Below are positions 6,328-31,022 of a stretch of DNA of 43,220 bases, piece after piece (within the stretch, counting starts at the first letter, position 1; each line of letters opens with the position of its first letter). The DNA is from a virus. Lineage: Duplodnaviria; Heunggongvirae; Uroviricota; Caudoviricetes. A program made the position numbers and the translations under genes. The notes beneath the pieces were generated by a model. It made no database searches. It was not told the DNA's origin and saw nothing but the letters and a program-made list of their open reading frames with translations. Location of the stretch: the IMG/VR virus record IMGVR_UViG_2563366806_000003, one strand, 5' to 3'.

Positions 6328-6690
6328 TTAATGACCTGCTGCGCGGAGTTTTCCGTCAGGTTCACCGGCAAGAGTCAGCAACTGTCCCTGGTCTTCCTGC
6401 AGAATAGTCAGGCGACCACCGCGATTGACATACATCGGCGTTTCGGTGGTGTCTTCTTCGGAAATTTTCCCGCGGTTAGTCGGGCGAACATATGAGAGTT
6501 TGTGTTTGATTTTCACTCGGTTCTCATCAAACGGTTCGATTTCCAGGTTGAGCGAGACCTTACCTTTGGTTTTCGTGTTCATCACACCGGAAGCGACTTC
6601 ACTGAGAACTGCGCCGATTTTGGTTTCAAATACGCCGCCGTCCAGCTCCCCGATAAATGCCTGCACATCAGTACTGCGTTCGCTAGCCAT
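6328..6690 (-). CDS. Hypothetical phage protein, 120 aa (YfdP-like by size and position)
   Basis: Start MASERSTDV… preceded by GAGGAG; the 226-aa track ORF upstream extension runs into GC-rich structured non-coding DNA and is not credible. Confidence 0.5.
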   Translation of the reverse strand: MASERSTDVQAFIGELDGGVFETKIGAVLSEVASGVMNTKTKGKVSLNLEIEPFDENRVKIKHKLSYVRPTNRGKISEEDTTETPMYVNRGGRLTILQEDQGQLLTLAGEPDGKLRAAGH

Positions 6691-6719: not shown

Positions 6720-7125
6720 AAGGTCGGTTAGTTTCTCCACAAAACAGAGAAGAACACCTGCGGTGACTGCCGCCCGGATGGATTGGGTTATGAGCCCGTC
6801 GTCCGGTGATGCTCTTCTCTGTTTTGTAAAAAGGACGGTACCAGCCGGAAGCAATGGTACAAGCTGGTACCGCCAAGACTACACACAGCATAAAGTTGTG
6901 GTGCCGGGTGCCTCCCGGTGCCTGGCGAAGGTTGCACACCAGGCGGGTGGGTATCCACAGAAGGTCGACTGTCAGCCTCAACCTTAACCCGCGTGCGCTG
7001 AGCCGCATTCACCACAACGCTAAGGATTCTCTCTGGTTGAAAATACTTAGCTGTTATGTGCCTGTCTTTTCACCACTTCAGGCTCGGTGGTATCCTTTTA
7101 AGCCCGTATACATAAAAGGAAAATC
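6720..7125 (-). other. GC-rich, highly structured non-coding region (candidate ncRNA or cis-regulatory RNA structure)
   Basis: 15-bp perfect inverted repeat caaaacagagaaga (6739-6753 / 6813-6827), second stem ggtaccagc/gctggtacc (6837-6871), further GC-rich palindromes; ORFs here on both strands have non-protein-like composition. Confidence 0.3.
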
Positions 7126-7127
7126 AA

Positions 7128-7373
7128 ATGACTTTTGATGAAAAAGAACTTGATAATGCAATTAATAAAATCATCGTAACGTCGCTCTTTTCCTGTCTCA
7201 GCGACACTCAGCAGAAACAGTTCTACGAATCGGCTTTCAACATGATCGAGCGTTGTTGTTTCTGCGATGCCGACGAGTTACCTGAAAAAATCAGGAAACA
7301 GTTGGCTGATGCTCTTCGAGTGCGACTTTCTGACCAATTTTCTGAAATGTGCTCTCCGAATTTGGACAAATAG
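7128..7373 (+). CDS. Hypothetical small protein, 81 aa
   Basis: Strong RBS (aaaaggaaaatcaaATG), protein-like sequence; overlaps convergently with the 7291-7566 ORF, so only one may be real. Confidence 0.35.
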   Translation: MTFDEKELDNAINKIIVTSLFSCLSDTQQKQFYESAFNMIERCCFCDADELPEKIRKQLADALRVRLSDQFSEMCSPNLDK

Positions 7374-7566
7374 AAAAAGGCCATTTCCATTCAGGGTCTG
7401 ATGGAAATACTTCAGCCTGTTCCAAAGCACGGCGTAAAGAGAATACAACTCCAGCCATAATCTGATGTTTCCCATTGGTCCAGCTATCGCCGCTCTGATC
7501 TACAGGAGCGGCTATGTCGTATGACCAAACGACTTCACCACTATTGTTTAAAATCTGGACTTTCAT
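7291..7566 (-). CDS. Hypothetical protein, 91 aa, first ORF downstream of the leftward early promoter
   Basis: GGAGG about 12 nt upstream; position equivalent to the first pL gene; its 3' part overlaps the + ORF and contains a terminator-like hairpin. Confidence 0.35.
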   Translation of the reverse strand: MKVQILNNSGEVVWSYDIAAPVDQSGDSWTNGKHQIMAGVVFSLRRALEQAEVFPSDPEWKWPFSICPNSESTFQKIGQKVALEEHQPTVS

Positions 7567-7684
7567 TTTGTTCTTTAACCTCCAGATACGGGCGTTTAAT
7601 GGCCCCGCCGAACAGCTCTTTTCCGCAATAGCTGCAATGTCTTTCGCGCATCAGCCTGCGCATTCACCACAACTCTAAAAACAA

Positions 7685-7737
7685 ATGTAGGATATCCAAC
7701 ATGTGAGTGTCAAGAGTTTATGTTGGTTATCCTACAT
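7685..7737 (-). promoter_or_regulatory. Left operator/promoter region (OL/pL-like): two 18-bp palindromic operators flanking a TTGACA -35 on the minus strand
   Basis: atgtaggatatccaacat (7685-7702) and atgttggttatcctacat (7720-7737); same operator/-35 arrangement as the rightward promoter at 8488-8516. Confidence 0.55.
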
Positions 7738-7753
7738 AAAAAGATAGGCTCAT

Positions 7754-7779
7754 AAAAAAACCGGGGATACCCCGGTTTT
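7754..7779 (-). terminator. Intrinsic terminator downstream of the repressor gene
   Basis: ccgggg-atac-cccgg hairpin with a T-run on the minus strand. Confidence 0.65.
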
Positions 7780-7799
7780 GCGATAGTGAGGAAGATGTG

Positions 7800-8453
7800 T
7801 CAAAAATCCATTATTACTTGTTTGACAAGACCAACTATTCTGCAGTTCTCACCGCATTCAATAGTTTTATAGTTAGGATTTAGTGGGACGAGATACCTGT
7901 TCGGCCAGTCCTCAACAAATTTTTTGAGTGTCGCTTCTTGCCCACCATTGATATGGGCAACAACGATTTTTCCGTTAATACACTCTGTATCAATAATATC
8001 TGGCTCTACGATAACGATAGAACCTTCTGGTATCGATGGTGAGCCGAGGGGATTGGTCATTGAATCACCACGGACCCGTAGTGCAAATGCCATTTCTGAT
8101 ACAAGGGCGGTAGTATAAACCCACTCTTCAGCATCTTCTTTCCTGACACCAGGCTCCGTCATTGTCCATGAACCCGCCTGAACCCACGAGATGAGGGGGA
8201 CTTTTTTAACTGCGAATATTTCAGGTTTTAGATTTATCTTTGGTTCAGGCGAGCCTTTTCCGCTAACAAGCCACAGAGGATCGCATTTAAGTGCGTTGGC
8301 TAGGGCTTGAAGGTTGGCTCCATTTGGTTGGTAGTCGTCCTTTTCCCATCCAGTAACCGTGACACGGTTCACACCAGTCAAATCAGCCAGTGCTTGTTGT
8401 GTCAGGTTCAGTTCTTTTCGCCTTTGGCGAATACGATCACTCATGTTCATCAT
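7800..8453 (-). CDS. CI-like prophage repressor (N-terminal XRE-type HTH, C-terminal S24 LexA-like peptidase domain)
   Basis: …LNLTQQALADLTGVNRVTVTGWE… HTH; C-terminal …LRVRGDSMTNP… and …KKF… S24 self-cleavage motifs; divergent from the Cro-like gene with operators between. Confidence 0.85.
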   Translation of the reverse strand: MMNMSDRIRQRRKELNLTQQALADLTGVNRVTVTGWEKDDYQPNGANLQALANALKCDPLWLVSGKGSPEPKINLKPEIFAVKKVPLISWVQAGSWTMTEPGVRKEDAEEWVYTTALVSEMAFALRVRGDSMTNPLGSPSIPEGSIVIVEPDIIDTECINGKIVVAHINGGQEATLKKFVEDWPNRYLVPLNPNYKTIECGENCRIVGLVKQVIMDF

Positions 8454-8476: not shown

Positions 8477-8517
8477 ATGTAGGATTCTTGACATTGGTAT
8501 GTTGGATATCCTACATT
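8477..8517 (+). promoter_or_regulatory. Right operator/promoter region (OR/pR-like)
   Basis: TTGACA at 8488-8493; 18-bp palindromic operator atgttggatatcctacat (8499-8516) over the -10 region; degenerate half-site copy at 8477-8494. Confidence 0.55.
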
Positions 8518-8548: not shown

Positions 8549-8746
8549 ATGCGGAAATCCGACGTGATTAATTATTTCGGCGGAGTTTGTAAAACCGCCG
8601 AAGCCCTAGGTATTAAGCATCCGTCTGTTTCAGAGTGGCCTGAGATTATTCCTGAAGGCCGAGCGTACCAGTTAGAAAAAATTACTAACGGGAAACTGAA
8701 AGTTGACGTGTCTTTATATCAAAAGACTAACAGTGCTGCGGCATAA
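8549..8746 (+). CDS. Cro-like DNA-binding protein
   Basis: 65-aa protein divergent from the repressor; …GGVCKTAEALGIKHPSVSEW… HTH typical of Cro/YdaS-like proteins. Confidence 0.7.
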   Translation: MRKSDVINYFGGVCKTAEALGIKHPSVSEWPEIIPEGRAYQLEKITNGKLKVDVSLYQKTNSAAA

Positions 8747-29074: not shown

Positions 29075-31022
29075 ATTTGAGCTTAAGGCGTTGATCACCG
29101 GTGTCGACAGGCTTTCTCCCGCGCTGTCGAAAATGCAAAAGAAAATCCGGGGATTTAAACGCCAGGCGGAAGAAGCGTCACAGGGTGGGCTGGCGCTTGG
29201 TGGCGGACTGGCAGCGGGTCTGACGCTTTCCCTGAAATCTTATGCCGATCAGGAAAACGCCGCCACCGGGCTGAAAGTCGCCATGATGGATGCGAACGGC
29301 GAGGTTGGAAAGAGCTTTCAGGACATCAATAAACTGGCTATTGGCCTGGGTAACCAGCTACCCGGTACAACGGCTGATTTCCAGAACATGATGCAGATGC
29401 TGGTGCGTCAGGGGATCCCGGCAGAAAACATTCTTGGTGGTGTGGGTAAAGCGACAGCTTATCTTGCGGTACAACTGAAAAAAACACCGGAAGCGGCTGC
29501 TGAGTTTGCTGCAAAGATGCAGGATGCTACCGGAACGGCGTCAGAAGACATGATGGGGCTGTTCGACACTATCCAGAAGGCGTTTTATCTGGGCGTTGAC
29601 GATACCAACATGTTGTCCTTCTTCACTAAAACCAGTTCTGTTCTGAAGATGGTGAACAAGGACGGTCTTCAGGCTGCACAGAGCCTTGCCCCCATCAGCG
29701 TCATGATGGATCAGATGGGGATGAACGGGGAGTCGGCAGGTAATGCCCTGCGAAAAGTTATCCAGTCCGGATTAAGCGTTAAGAAAATCAGGGACGTCAA
29801 TAAAGTCATGGCCCGCCAGAGACTCGGGGTACAGCTCGATTTTACTGACGGCAAAGGAAGTTTTGGCGGTCTTGATAACATGTTCAGGCAACTGGCAAAG
29901 CTGCGAAAACTGACCGACGTTAAGCGAACAGGTGTACTTAAGGCAATATTTGGTGATGATGCCGAAACCCTTCAGGTGGTCAATGCACTAATCGATAAAG
30001 GAAAGGATGGCTACGATCAGATCCAGCAGAAGATGAATAAACAGGCCAGCCTGAATAAACGTGTTCAGGCACAGCTTGGTACGCTGTCCAACCTGTGGGA
30101 GGCAATGACGGGGACCGCAACTAACGGCCTTGCGGCTATTGGCGGCGCATTTTCTGGTGACGCCAAAAATATCACGCAATGGCTGGGGGAGTTGGGGGAA
30201 AAATTCACGAAGTTTGCGGATGAAAATCCCCGGGTTATTCGCGGCGTCGTCGGGCTTGCTGCCGGTCTTGCGATTCTGAAACTGGGATTGATGGGCGTGG
30301 GCAGTGCCATCAGTATCGTCAGCAGGATCATGTCGATGACGCCGATTGGCATGATTGCGACGGCGATTGCCTTGGCTGCGGGATTAATTATCACTAACTG
30401 GGATGTTGTTGGACCTTATTTCAAGAAGCTCTGGGAAACCATTGGTCCTTATTTTGAGGCTGGCTGGGAACTTCTGAAGAAGGTTTTTGCCTGGTCGCCG
30501 CTGGGGATGGTAATCAATAACTGGGGACCGGTTGTTAAGTGGTTTCAGGATATGTGGGACAAGCTGAAGCCAATTATTGAGTGGTTTACCGACAGTTCCG
30601 GTGACACGGTCGATGCCATTAACTCGGCGCAGTGGGGCGCGGGTGCTTATGATGCTTATGGGACGGGAATACCGCCACGGGGATACACTCCTTATCCGGC
30701 GCAGTCAAACAACGCCTCCGGTGACACGGTCGATGCCATTAACTCTGCGCAGTGGGGCGCGGGTGCTTATGATGCTTATGGGACGGGAATACCGGCGCGG
30801 GGATACACACCTTATCCGGCGGTAGATCCGGCTCAGTCAAACAACGCCTCCGATGCTACAGGCCCGAATCCCTTCATGATTAACAAAGCTTCTGCGCCAA
30901 AAGTTGACGGTGAGATCAAGGTCTCTTTTGTGAATTCGCCTCCGGGTATGCGGGTTATGGAAACGCGATCCAGCGGTTTTGATATAAATCACGATGTTGG
31001 CTATACGCATATTGGCAGATGA
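29067..31022 (+). CDS. Tail tape measure protein
   Basis: 651 aa, helical/Gly-Ala-rich with hydrophobic segments; contains a tandem duplication. Confidence 0.85.
   Translation: MAEFELKALITGVDRLSPALSKMQKKIRGFKRQAEEASQGGLALGGGLAAGLTLSLKSYADQENAATGLKVAMMDANGEVGKSFQDINKLAIGLGNQLPGTTADFQNMMQMLVRQGIPAENILGGVGKATAYLAVQLKKTPEAAAEFAAKMQDATGTASEDMMGLFDTIQKAFYLGVDDTNMLSFFTKTSSVLKMVNKDGLQAAQSLAPISVMMDQMGMNGESAGNALRKVIQSGLSVKKIRDVNKVMARQRLGVQLDFTDGKGSFGGLDNMFRQLAKLRKLTDVKRTGVLKAIFGDDAETLQVVNALIDKGKDGYDQIQQKMNKQASLNKRVQAQLGTLSNLWEAMTGTATNGLAAIGGAFSGDAKNITQWLGELGEKFTKFADENPRVIRGVVGLAAGLAILKLGLMGVGSAISIVSRIMSMTPIGMIATAIALAAGLIITNWDVVGPYFKKLWETIGPYFEAGWELLKKVFAWSPLGMVINNWGPVVKWFQDMWDKLKPIIEWFTDSSGDTVDAINSAQWGAGAYDAYGTGIPPRGYTPYPAQSNNASGDTVDAINSAQWGAGAYDAYGTGIPARGYTPYPAVDPAQSNNASDATGPNPFMINKASAPKVDGEIKVSFVNSPPGMRVMETRSSGFDINHDVGYTHIGR
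30596..30835 (+). repeat. Tandem duplication (about 120 bp x2) inside the tape measure gene
   Basis: ggtgacacggtcgatgccattaactc…ccttatccggcg occurs twice consecutively, encoding SGDTVDAINSAQWGAGAYDAYGTGIP(P/A)RGYTPYPA twice. Confidence 0.85.

Follow-up and report, generated by a model that had tools for sequence, protein, structure and literature searches.

The two identical boxes on the leftward transcript of this 43,220-nt window (the whole stretch of DNA that we analyzed) very probably mark one and the same segment in two homologous copies of a widespread structured phage RNA of the STnc100/PasD family, copy 1 lying in a complete element and copy 2 in a truncated relic. Because the boxes are strands of one complete and one broken-off RNA, they do not represent a lambda-style nut site, and a suspected pair of nut-like sites resolves instead into one complete and one truncated RNA of a kind already known from prophages.

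The 14-mer GCATTCACCACAAC occurs exactly on the plus strand at 7005–7018 (copy 1) and 7660–7673 (copy 2), as the first-pass annotation had described, and no third copy with up to two mismatches was found in the window. The repeat is longer than the 14-mer; CGCATTCACCACAAC[G/T]CTAA at 7004–7023 and at 7659–7678 is 19/20 identical. The annotation was also right to place both copies on one leftward transcript (same strand, 655 nt apart) and to see a GC hairpin beside each: in RNA letters, GCGGC-UCAGC-GC-a-CGC at 6991–7006 adjoins copy 1 and GCGCA-GGCUGA-UGCGC at 7646–7661 adjoins copy 2. Taken by itself, the bare 14-mer repeat is within chance for a 43-kb window: 0.54 matches with up to two mismatches were expected, two were reached in 11/100 shuffles, block shuffles of the window gave 0–4 exact 14-mer pairs, and several unrelated exact 14-mer pairs are also present in the window. 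The repeat is nonrandom by virtue of its context, since the two copies occupy equivalent places in two homologous RNA elements. Read as leftward RNA, each box is GUUGUGGUGAAUGC, consisting of the 5′ strand of a helix termed P1 and an invariant GGUGAAU, and the GC hairpins beside both boxes are helix P2 of the structured phage RNA; the piece common to both copies runs from the P1 5′ strand through the invariant GGUGAAU junction to the start of P2. The proposal that the boxes are nut-like or factor-binding sites gives way to the finding that both boxes supply the 5′ strand of a closing helix that covaries. They are not two equivalent single-stranded sites, and copy 2 sits in a truncated element that has lost its pairing partner.

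Copy 1 is contained in a complete type-A, STnc100-like element at 6895–7018 on the minus strand. Its P1 5′ strand (7018–7010), which overlaps the copy 1 box, is followed by an AAU junction (7009–7007), P2 (7006–6991), a pseudoknot between AAGGUUG (6985–6979) and CAACCUU (6934–6928), the latter in the loop of P5 (6943–6921), then P6 (6918–6904; CCGGG-AGGCA-CCCGG), and finally the P1 3′ strand (6903–6895), which pairs with 7018–7010. By pairing with CACCACAAC at 6903–6895, the copy 1 box encloses P2, the pseudoknot, and the hairpin CCGGGAGGCACCCGG. The minimum-free-energy fold of the element has −56.6 kcal/mol (z = −3.1). Among 84 distinct type-A instances, P1 pairs in 78 compared with 61.8 in shuffles; at position +1 of P1, 44 instances have G-C and 27 have A-U, and at position +2 there are 29 U-A and 22 C-G pairs. 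The longest complementary run of the pseudoknot averages 7.3 nt as against 5.7 nt for shuffled strands, and the partner lies within a predicted hairpin loop in 73/86 instances.

The Rfam STnc100 model aligns to copy 1 over its full length (7048→6825, model positions 1–206) with 43.4 bits (E = 1.2e-7); the SfV element scores 39.5 bits against the same model. Since 43.4 bits is significant yet below the curated gathering score of 47 bits for RF02076 STnc100, we regard the copy 1 element as a divergent STnc100 relative. As in STnc100, a GGUG/CACC helix closes the element and is followed by AAU and a hairpin, the alignment placing GUGGUG/CACCAC as the closing helix; the 3′ hairpin CCGGGAGGCACCCGG is present exactly at 6918–6904, directly before the 3′ strand; and a Rho-independent terminator (12-bp stem plus U5, 6874–6826) stands at the 3′ end. 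The type-A element leads, through a 20-nt spacer, into an intrinsic terminator. The spacer, single-stranded UUUAUGCUGUGUGUAGUCUU at 6875–6894 (minus strand), differs between types A and B; should the RNA work as an Hfq-type sRNA, this stretch would be its candidate seed. The terminator-like hairpin at 6826–6874 (minus strand) combines a 12-bp stem, GGCGGUACCAGC/GCUGGUACCGUC, with a 17-nt loop and a following CUUUUUAC, has about −21 kcal/mol, and is common to phages with type A or type B. A search for further copies in the window (for example, a putR-like one in the rightward or late operon) returned only the copy 1 element from Rfam at E ≤ 0.01. Weaker Rfam matches to DicF (E = 0.36), ftsZ-DE (E = 1.9), and Termite-leu (E = 0.099, on the repressor terminator) were not significant.

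Copy 2 lies in a truncated type-B element at 7588–7673 on the minus strand, comprising its 5′ 86 nt. The relic keeps the P1 5′ strand GUUGUGGUG (7673–7665), AAU, P2 (7661–7646), and part of the variable center, and it is without the 3′ hairpin P6 and the P1 3′ strand. Positions 7591–7800 are 209/210 identical to Lys8385Vzw, in which the element is complete. Identity to Lys8385Vzw begins at 7588 and identity to SfV ends at 7568; the 19 nt between them (7569–7587, minus strand) form a mosaic joint common to neither, within which lies the GGAGG ribosome-binding site of the next gene (7579–7583). The remainder of the type-B element has been replaced from 7587 leftwards, and copy 2 is therefore a truncated copy. 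Rfam gave no match for type B, the type of copy 2. Model R1, a covariance model that we built from type B only, matches the relic over 7673–7631 alone (37.5 bits, E = 4.7e-7), where it covers no more than the first 32 positions of the model and closes spuriously at 7639–7631, and it adds nothing else in the window; a full-length type-B match, with P6 (GCCGG-AGAUCAGCA-CCGGC) and the P1 3′ strand, was not obtained for copy 2. We conclude that copy 2 most likely survives as a nonfunctional relic where the pL transcript begins. Its lack of function is something that we infer, because the relic box can in principle pair with the downstream 3′ strand over 13 bp (−19.9 compared with −19.0 kcal/mol for copy 1). 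A 40-aa ORF at 7541–7663 (N terminus MRRLMRER, arginine-rich), considered as a coding explanation, matches no family; its AUG lies inside the invariant GGUGAAUG, directly after the only SD-like bases, and the ORF overlies the covarying P2.

The two types share a fold of P1, P2, and P6 that covaries in both. In type B, 97.7% of P1 plus P2 cells are paired compared with 87.5% in shuffled alignments, and 59 double-change cells compare with 18.5 shuffled, a number reached in 0/500 shuffles; slid controls were 31–53% paired. The pseudoknot is found in type A, and loop–loop complementarity in type B, where the P2 loop GCUGA is complementary to a UCAG(C/U) kept in the 8–12-nt P6 loops. R1 also matches the type-A element over its full length (27.4 bits, E = 1e-4). 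Canonical CCCCC-type STnc100 members were not found by R1, so that the A–B relationship depends on the SfV subtype as the bridge between the two models. An exact 23-mer is present in 102 species-representative genomes from several bacterial lineages, and in the literature searched we found no paper containing signature sequences of type B, the sister type.

STnc100 relatives are expressed, Hfq-associated small RNAs (PMC5331693, PMC8550237, PMC12711010). EDL933 has 11 annotated STnc100 copies with RNA-seq reads, one of them Northern-verified (PMC5331693); the stability of PasD is Hfq-dependent (PMC8550237); and a common ancestor has been proposed for PasD and STnc100 (bioRxiv 10.64898/2026.05.13.724894). 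The literature treats STnc100/PasD as an Hfq sRNA of unknown function; here it is joined by a sister type that has no Rfam model. The fold of both types is more elaborate than a seed-plus-terminator sRNA needs. This elaborate conserved fold, the exact 23-nt identity across many bacterial lineages, and the terminator-free copies in tRNA arrays of virulent phages are all unusual for a plain Hfq sRNA, and taken together they suggest that the family's real function may lie beyond this role.

The predicted leftward promoter pL is σ70-like and lies at 7684–7713 on the minus strand (−35 TTGACA, 18-nt spacer, −10 TACATT at 7689–7684), flanked and overlapped by operator-like 18-nt palindromes at 7685–7702 and 7720–7737. 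Transcription probably starts at about 7676; counted from there, copy 2 spans approximately +4 to +17 of the pL RNA, which agrees with its having been placed just past pL, where nutL or putL would sit. Upstream are the repressor gene (7800–8453, minus strand; annotated as a LexA family protein) and cro (8549–8746, plus strand; match to P22_Cro). The first ORF of the leftward operon is a 91-aa SfV orf33-like gene (7291–7566, minus strand; phrog_3195, function unknown), which is not N-like; the SfV-type module separating the boxes also contains an 81-aa ORF (7128–7373, plus strand; phrog_3311, function unknown). These first ORFs had no Pfam match, and their phrog assignments bear out the earlier remark that no N-like protein is evident. 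A terminator-like hairpin within orf33 (7376–7410) could limit the pL transcription that reaches copy 1, and no promoter-like site that would serve copy 1 was found on the minus strand at 7140–7020. The first gene past the leader and terminator is yfdP (6328–6690, minus strand), with yfdQ and yfdR after it; the interval from the terminator to the yfdP start contains a second long hairpin (6739–6827, minus strand; 25-nt arms, 84% complementary) that is conserved in SfV, mEp460, and Lys8385Vzw.

Comparison with related prophages suggests how this layout arose. Recombination probably brought in an SfV-type module (orf33, the 81-aa ORF, and the type-A element), cutting the type-B element at 7588. 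SfV carries copy 1 only, and prophages with the same repressor have either an intact type-B element or a complete type-A element directly at pL, the complete type B sitting at +4 of pL. As predicted, pL and box occur fused to the type-A body, over 126/126 nt, in nine Escherichia coli genomes, one of which has the identical repressor, WP_000981537.1. Given these fusions, the box is also a module boundary, and the 15–20 nt common to both types acts as a recombination joint between modules. The three alternative arrangements, like the homology, the covarying helices, and the truncation, are direct observations. The refuting condition set in the annotation, lack of conservation in related phages, gave a mixed outcome: the box is conserved there, though as a part of the RNA, SfV has only copy 1, and the nine genomes have a merged copy. 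In the window, the complete element would be transcribed from pL after induction, ending at the terminator (6826–6834). By the example of its relatives, it may yield a stable, Hfq-associated small RNA with a structured 5′ domain followed by the single-stranded spacer and terminator.

We considered whether the whole structured RNA might instead be a cis-acting leader for terminator read-through, an analog of nutL or putL working alone or with a phage or host factor, and we think this rather unlikely. The arrangement of the locus speaks for it: in 5/5 arrangements examined, the intact element lies 11–20 nt upstream of the same terminator, ahead of yfdP-yfdQ-yfdR, and in two of the five nothing else lies between pL and the terminator. 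More widely, 30/102 type-A instances come right after a σ70 promoter, with a fixed 10 nt from the −10 hexamer to GGUGAAU, and a terminator-like hairpin follows 74/102. In other bacteria, the element recurs in the order S24 repressor, element, early-left genes, and also between a Q-position gene and the lysis genes. At the latter kind of position, however, antitermination could come from elsewhere: PasD is reported near Q genes, and loci such as L258 and L263 have a Q-position gene upstream, so that Q could supply late antitermination at such loci. The relatives, moreover, build up in lysogens as discrete RNAs. This points to termination after the element and argues against an autonomous, efficient antiterminator, and the copies in the tRNA arrays of virulent phages have no terminator after them.

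Nor did we find similarity to boxA, boxB, or putL. No boxA (up to one mismatch) lies at the elements on the leftward strand; over 7680–6700 of that strand, the boxA sequences CGCUCUUA and UGCUCUUUA matched at this threshold only UUCUCUUUA inside orf33 (7443–7435). An apparent boxA, UGCUCUU(U/A)CC, ahead of many virulent-phage copies is the 3′ strand of the long stem of a neighboring tRNA-like module, GGUAAGAGCA...UGCUCUUACC. No boxB GNRNA hairpin occurs on the leftward strand, the only G+C-rich 5-bp/5-nt hairpin being P6, with loop AGGCA. The window yielded no N-like protein, which would suit a leader that needs none, and an arginine-rich N protein just downstream was not found; with no boxA, no boxB, and no N, membership in the lambda nut class was rejected. 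Membership in the HK022 put class was likewise rejected, as local alignment scores to putL (22, 14, and 14) did not exceed those of shuffles (mean ∼14–15, maxima 25–28); no Rfam model for put matched, even in HK022.

It is still less likely that the element imitates the shape of a tRNA and works as a processing signal or decoy for tRNA-handling machinery such as RNase P, serving to cut or stabilize phage transcripts or to divert tRNA-targeting defenses. In this reading, P1 stacked on the 5-bp 3′ hairpin would resemble the acceptor and T arms, and the 5′ hairpin the D arm. P1 (mostly 7–9 bp) and P6 are indeed contiguous on the 3′ strand as 7 + 5 bp, and the loop–loop complementarity of type B fits such a shape. 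Yet the elements go unrecognized by ARAGORN and by the Rfam tRNA model (ARAGORN reports no gene in the window, and the tRNA model has no match on the elements), and their loops are of neither the canonical D nor the canonical T type. The tRNA clusters of T1-like, N4-like, Vi1-like, and P1-like phages contain copies, some of them 5–6 nt from a tRNA, and a same-strand tRNA is found <400 nt away in 13% of instances compared with 3.5–6% for random positions; most instances, however, are not near tRNAs. The four bases past P1 are CCAA, ACCA, or ACCC in 18/67 elements with a recognizable P6, while CCA is missing from most copies, including both in the window. T4 rnaC and rnaD were examined as relatives and rejected, the best R1 score (filters off) being 7.5 bits (E = 0.76) and located elsewhere in the locus.

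An immunity system of the P4/P1 type, in which the direct repeats would be targets of a processed antisense RNA (compare seqA/seqC and a1b1/a2b2), is very improbable. Two direct copies and one complementary copy (6895–6903) do lie on one transcript, and copy 2 could pair with that 3′ strand; the complementary sequence, however, pairs with copy 1 as the opposite strand of its covarying closing helix, SfV lacks copy 2, and nine genomes have the copies merged. C4, isrK, and c4-a1b1 had no match in the window, and SfV has its C4 elsewhere. Equally far-fetched is a chance repeat or a purely DNA-level protein-binding or recombination site: the bare 14-mer pair is within chance and the box coincides with recombination joints, but as a sole explanation this is refuted by the covariation at the RNA level and by the model matches, which place both copies in homologous elements, and the box is unrelated in sequence to the operator palindromes.

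Beyond the preferred reading of a complete and a truncated copy, we tentatively raise a broader and rather unlikely one, that STnc100/PasD and type B form one pseudoknotted superfamily with a tRNA-like core that works as a cis-acting operon leader and not as an ordinary base-pairing sRNA. Its members would extend from lambdoid prophages to T1-, N4-, Vi1-, and P1-like phages. If true, elements that sit in untranslated tRNA arrays or at +1 to +4 of transcripts, early-left as well as late, would act on the transcription or processing machinery, through factor-dependent or autonomous read-through of the adjacent terminator, protection from Rho, or RNase P-type processing. In SfV-like phages, where N is lacking, they would then fill the vacant place of nutL/putL. 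In these phages the intact element always lies directly before the first early-left terminator, which makes it a concrete candidate for how they get past that terminator.

Among known systems, lambda nutL resembles the window in lying just past pL on the leftward transcript, with a conserved box, a GC hairpin, and a second copy further along; unlike in nutL, the box here is base-paired and not single-stranded, and boxA at the element, a GNRNA loop, and N are lacking. HK022 putL is a structured RNA that starts at about +3/+4 of the pL transcript (PMC9378689), and like put the RNA studied here is structured, stands at the start of the pL transcript ahead of terminators, and needs no N. Put, however, packs two stem-loops and a triple helix into ∼70 nt, compared with a closed multihelix fold and pseudoknot here, and relatives of the window RNA, unlike put, accumulate as discrete small RNAs. 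The P1 C4 and P4 CI systems share repeated boxes and a complementary box on one phage transcript, whereas the complementarity in the window is an intramolecular closing helix. With tRNA and with T4 rnaC and rnaD, the element shares a P1 of 7–9 bp on a 5-bp hairpin, a 5′ hairpin at the D-arm position, and copies in phage tRNA clusters; it differs in escaping tRNA finders and, for the window copies, in being without CCA. STnc100 (PasD1/PasD2 of EPEC and EcOnc27/sRNA103 of EHEC) differs in having CCCCC/GGGGG for P2 where the window has GCGGC.../...GCCGC, and its Rfam consensus marks neither the pseudoknot nor the link to tRNA arrays. The window element lies in a repressor-controlled early-left leader, whereas the reported sites are near Q genes for PasD and downstream of stx2B for EcOnc27; the pL of this prophage is repressed in the lysogen, whereas the STnc100/PasD relatives are constitutively expressed. 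With these differences, STnc100 matches the window element in its full-length alignment, its GGUG/CACC helix followed by AAU and a hairpin, the exact CCGGGAGGCACCCGGCACCA, the 3′ terminator, and the location in a lambdoid prophage.

The two identical boxes on the leftward transcript were shown to be 5' strands of the closing helix (P1) of two homologous RNA elements, one complete and one truncated. A search of the window confirmed the 14-mer GCATTCACCACAAC as exact plus-strand copies at 7005-7018 (copy 1) and 7660-7673 (copy 2), with no third copy at up to two mismatches, inside a longer repeat, CGCATTCACCACAAC[G/T]CTAA, identical at 19/20 positions (7004-7023 versus 7659-7678). The GC hairpin that the first-pass annotation had noted next to each box was found at 6991-7006 and 7646-7661. 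The bare repeat is within chance (0.54 matches expected; two reached in 11/100 shuffles), block shuffles of the window contain 0-4 exact 14-mer pairs, and unrelated pairs are also present in the real window; the significance of the repeat derives from its context. Separately, exact 14-mer blocks at 30597-30625 and at 30627-30653 or beyond recur 120 bp downstream (window 30597-30760), which points to a ~120-bp tandem duplication that presumably falls within a structural gene.

The window, an SfV-like lambdoid prophage, carries a LexA-family repressor (7800-8453, minus strand), a P22-Cro-like gene (8549-8746, plus strand) and, after it, a CII-like gene. A leftward promoter, pL, was predicted from sequence at 7713-7684 on the minus strand (TTGACA, 18 nt, TACATT), flanked by operator-like palindromes of 18 nt each; a predicted pR at 8488-8517 (plus strand) has the same hexamers and spacing. 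Because pL is predicted there, copy 2 would start at about +4 of its transcript, with copy 1 655 nt farther on along the same strand, in agreement with the earlier placement of copy 2 just after the early leftward promoter and copy 1 ~650 bp beyond.

Read leftward as RNA, the box is GUUGUGGUGAAUGC. An Rfam E-value scan returned a full-length match to STnc100 (RF02076) at 7048->6825, minus strand (43.4 bits, E=1.2e-7), which falls slightly short of the curated gathering cut-off of 47. The STnc100 alignment pairs GUGGUG with CACCAC, and the box is therefore the 5' strand of P1, whose 3' strand CACCACAAC (6903-6895, minus strand) was also found as an inverted repeat. The element around copy 1 is a divergent representative of this known family and is here termed type A. 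The 124-nt element folds at -56.6 kcal/mol (z=-3.1) and reads, all on the minus strand, P1, AAU, the 5' hairpin P2 (7006-6991), a central region, the penultimate hairpin P5 (6943-6921), the 3' hairpin P6 (CCGGG-AGGCA-CCCGG, 6918-6904) and the P1 3' strand. Beyond this strand, a spacer of 20 nt leads to a terminator-like hairpin (12-bp stem, then CUUUUUAC; 6874-6826, minus strand). After its U-run comes a second long hairpin (6827-6739, minus strand; 25-nt arms, 84% complementary, 39-nt loop) just 5' of the yfdP ribosome-binding site; it is kept in SfV, mEp460 and Lys8385Vzw and might serve either as another terminator or as a site of RNase III-type processing.

Copy 2 belongs to a sister type without an Rfam model (type B), of which only a fragment is present. 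Lys8385Vzw shares the repressor and pL region of the window (209/210 identical over window 7591-7800) and has, directly at pL, a 135-nt type-B element that differs from type A yet is similarly built (GUUGUGGUGA-AU-GCGCAGGCUGAUGCGC ... GCCGGAGAUCAGCACCGG-U-CACCACAAC), followed by the same terminator and yfdP as in the window; mEp460 also carries a type-B element, but farther from its own pL. The window retains a relic, the first 86 nt of type B (7673-7588, minus strand), and the sequence switches at 7587 to 19 unique bases with a ribosome-binding site and, from 7568 leftwards, to an SfV module comprising orf33, an 81-aa ORF on the opposite strand and the type-A element. In SfV, copy 1 is present and copy 2 absent. 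R1, a covariance model built from type-B sequences only, matched the relic in its 5' part only (7673-7631; 37.5 bits, E=4.7e-7), and copy 2 therefore lies in a truncated element without P6 and the 3' strand. R1 also aligned along the whole type-A element in each of the window, SfV and ST64B (27-29 bits, E about 1e-4), setting CCGGGAG----GCACCCGG against GCCGGAGAUCAGCACCGG; the SfV subtype of type A is therefore homologous to type B. The relic itself is probably non-functional. Pairing of its box with the downstream 3' strand is conceivable on energy (-19.9 versus -19.0 kcal/mol for copy 1), but it would have to span 770 nt, whereas the local partner is 106 nt away, and a local fold is predicted for the relic.

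A 40-aa ORF at 7541-7663 (minus strand), with an arginine-rich start (MRRLMRER) and an AUG that falls within the relic's invariant GGUGAAUG, was judged fortuitous: it has no family match, its Shine-Dalgarno spacing is unusable and it overlies the covarying P2. The convergent ORFs 7291-7566 (minus strand) and 7128-7373 (plus strand) overlap by 83 nt and match phrog_3195 and phrog_3311, respectively, over their full length, both PHROG families of unknown function; the former contains a terminator-like hairpin (AUUUCCAU...AUGGAAAU, then GGCCUUUUUCUAUUU; about 7410-7366, minus strand). The SfV rightward operon (L001, 5478-5666) carries isrK (64 bits) and C4 antisense RNA (82 bits), and Lys8385Vzw (L005, 4364-4440) carries isrK; neither was found in the window at the Rfam thresholds used.

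The fusion expected from recombination between the two boxes, in which pL and the flank upstream of copy 2 continue into the type-A sequence that follows copy 1, was constructed as a query and found at 126/126 nt in nine complete E. coli genomes, and strain 2012EL-2448 has, in order, an identical repressor (WP_000981537.1), pL, type-A element, terminator and yfdP. One immunity region is therefore combined with three different leaders: Lys8385Vzw has type B alone, the nine E. coli genomes have type A alone, and the window has the type-B relic, the orf33 module and type A. For the third, at least 80% of a 1.1-kb query was covered in 92 E. coli genomes and the phage records vB_EcoM-720R4 and SKA5. 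All three leaders place an intact element immediately 5' of the same terminator. These comparisons show the box to be a recombination joint.

The family is a genuinely structured RNA. Scanning viral contigs for the sequence patterns yielded at least 120 stretches for each type. With GGUGAAU and CACC as type-A anchors, flanking position +1 was G-C in 44 and A-U in 27 and position +2 U-A in 29 and C-G in 22 among the matches listed, where flanking pairing reached 78/84 versus 61.8 in shuffles; RNAalifold recovered P1, P2 and P6. The type-A strand after P2 is complementary to the P5 loop through varied sequences (CCAGUC/GACUGG, UGAUACCA/UGGUAUCA, AGACUGACAAA/UUUGUCAGUCU; AAGGUUG/CAACCUU in the window), with a mean longest run of 7.3 versus 5.7 for shuffled strands and the partner inside a predicted hairpin loop in 73/86 instances, both among the matches listed. 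Type-B P1 and P2 covaried strongly among the matches listed (cells paired 97.7% versus 87.5% shuffled; 59 double-change cells versus 18.5, reached in 0/500 shuffles), and slid controls paired at 31-53%. P1 of type B is mostly 7-9 bp and contiguous with a 5-bp P6, and the centre spans about 20 to 170 nt among the matches listed. In genomes selected by the 5' 23-mer only, type-B P6 loops of 8-12 nt keep UCAG(C/U), complementary to the P2 loop GCUGA, which is conservation and not covariation. No Rfam family matched type B at E <=0.1, and a literature search found none of its signature strings.

Exact matches to the 23-mer GGTGAATGCGCAGGCTGATGCGC were found in 102 species-representative genomes (L254-L355). 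Most are gamma- and betaproteobacteria (including Enterobacterales, Burkholderiales and Pseudomonadales), some are alphaproteobacteria, and a few are assemblies placed in other phyla or labelled Geobacteraceae, Acidobacteriota, Phycisphaerales or Coriobacteriia. Their outer P1 pairs and centre vary, and the four bases after P1 are CCAA, ACCA or ACCC in 18/67 elements with a recognisable P6. Among the matches listed, 30/102 type-A instances begin directly after a sigma-70 promoter, exactly 10 nt separating the -10 hexamer from GGUGAAU, and 74/102 have a terminator-like hairpin within 120 nt downstream. In bacterial genomes, type B has an S24 repressor ~1.5 kb upstream on the same strand at 11 loci, with yfdP, yfdQ, yfdR and recombination-type genes as recurrent downstream early-left genes. 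Other type-B loci precede lysis genes and follow RusA/NinG-like ORFs and a 229-aa ORF assigned to the Q position by gene order; in one viral contig, promoter, element and terminator stand directly before holin, endolysin and Rz. The T1-like IME207, N4-like IME11, Vi1-like Madison and P1-like 813R1 carry 2-3 copies in or beside tRNA clusters, at least one of which adjoins another tRNA-like module in each of IME207, IME11 and 813R1. Further type-B copies are separated from a tRNA by 5-6 nt, and a same-strand tRNA occurs within 400 nt in 13% of instances among the matches listed versus 3.5-6% for random positions. In virulent and P1-like phages (L008 1420-1500, L009 1420-1500, L011 1419-1500) a structured module with a long closing stem, GGUAAGAGCA...UGCUCUUACC, directly adjoins the element, with a T-arm-like GGGUUCGAAUCCC in 813R1; ARAGORN made no call on these modules. 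L011 has three element copies (1501-1635, 1930-2031, 2191-2315). Weak permuted-tmRNA/alpha-tmRNA matches (E=0.0006-0.05) lie ~150-300 nt upstream of elements in the N4-like L009 (1190-1392) and Vi1-like L010 (1144-1345), where ARAGORN called no tmRNA.

STnc100 is a multi-copy prophage RNA with 11 annotated copies with RNA-seq reads in EDL933, one of them Northern-verified (PMC5331693). Downstream of stx2B a copy is predicted (at 75 nt in PMC12370729), and it partly overlaps EcOnc27, an Hfq-binding sRNA (PMC12711010). EPEC PasD1 and PasD2, found by RIL-seq, depend on Hfq for stability (PMC8550237); a 2026 preprint proposes a common ancestor of PasD and STnc100 and reports that in >98% of cases PasD has a Q gene no more than 10 kb away (bioRxiv 10.64898/2026.05.13.724894). 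The literature searched gave no established function for these relatives. With moderate confidence, induction would start pL transcription and yield an RNA ending at 6826-6834, and, by analogy with the relatives and again with moderate confidence, its structured domain, spacer and terminator would make it an Hfq-type small RNA.

The fold could instead be a cis-acting leader governing read-through or processing, which we think unlikely: the whole RNA lies in the nutL/putL slot and the pL-to-terminator interval is otherwise empty in two arrangements, but the relatives accumulate in lysogens as discrete small RNAs, which argues against an autonomous antiterminator. The proposal that the boxes themselves are nut-like failed on the leftward strand 7680-6700, where boxA at up to one mismatch was absent except for UUCUCUUUA inside orf33, the sole 5-bp/5-nt hairpin with a G+C-rich stem was P6 (loop AGGCA) and similarity to HK022 putL was not beyond shuffles; the first leftward ORFs matched no Pfam family, only PHROG families of unknown function, in line with the earlier remark that no N-like protein is evident, so that neither box qualifies as a nut or put site by these testable criteria. 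A boxA-like UGCUCUU(U/A)CC beside copies in virulent phages proved to be the 3' strand of a neighbouring stem.

The 14-mer repeat is largely explained by a divergent member of a known family (copy 1) and a fragment of its unmodelled sister type (copy 2). Of more interest than the repeat is a by-product, a large structured RNA superfamily with a tRNA-like core, located where phage operons begin and within phage tRNA arrays. The spacer/terminator part of the window (6833-6887, minus strand) gave a weak match to DicF, with UUGGCGGUACCAG against the DicF consensus UUGGCGGuAUCAG, that was not significant (19.3 bits, E=0.36), although both lie in an early-left-type prophage operon. The likeness to nutL and putL is positional: the whole RNA takes their place immediately ahead of the first early-left terminator, and two of the arrangements have nothing else between pL and that terminator.
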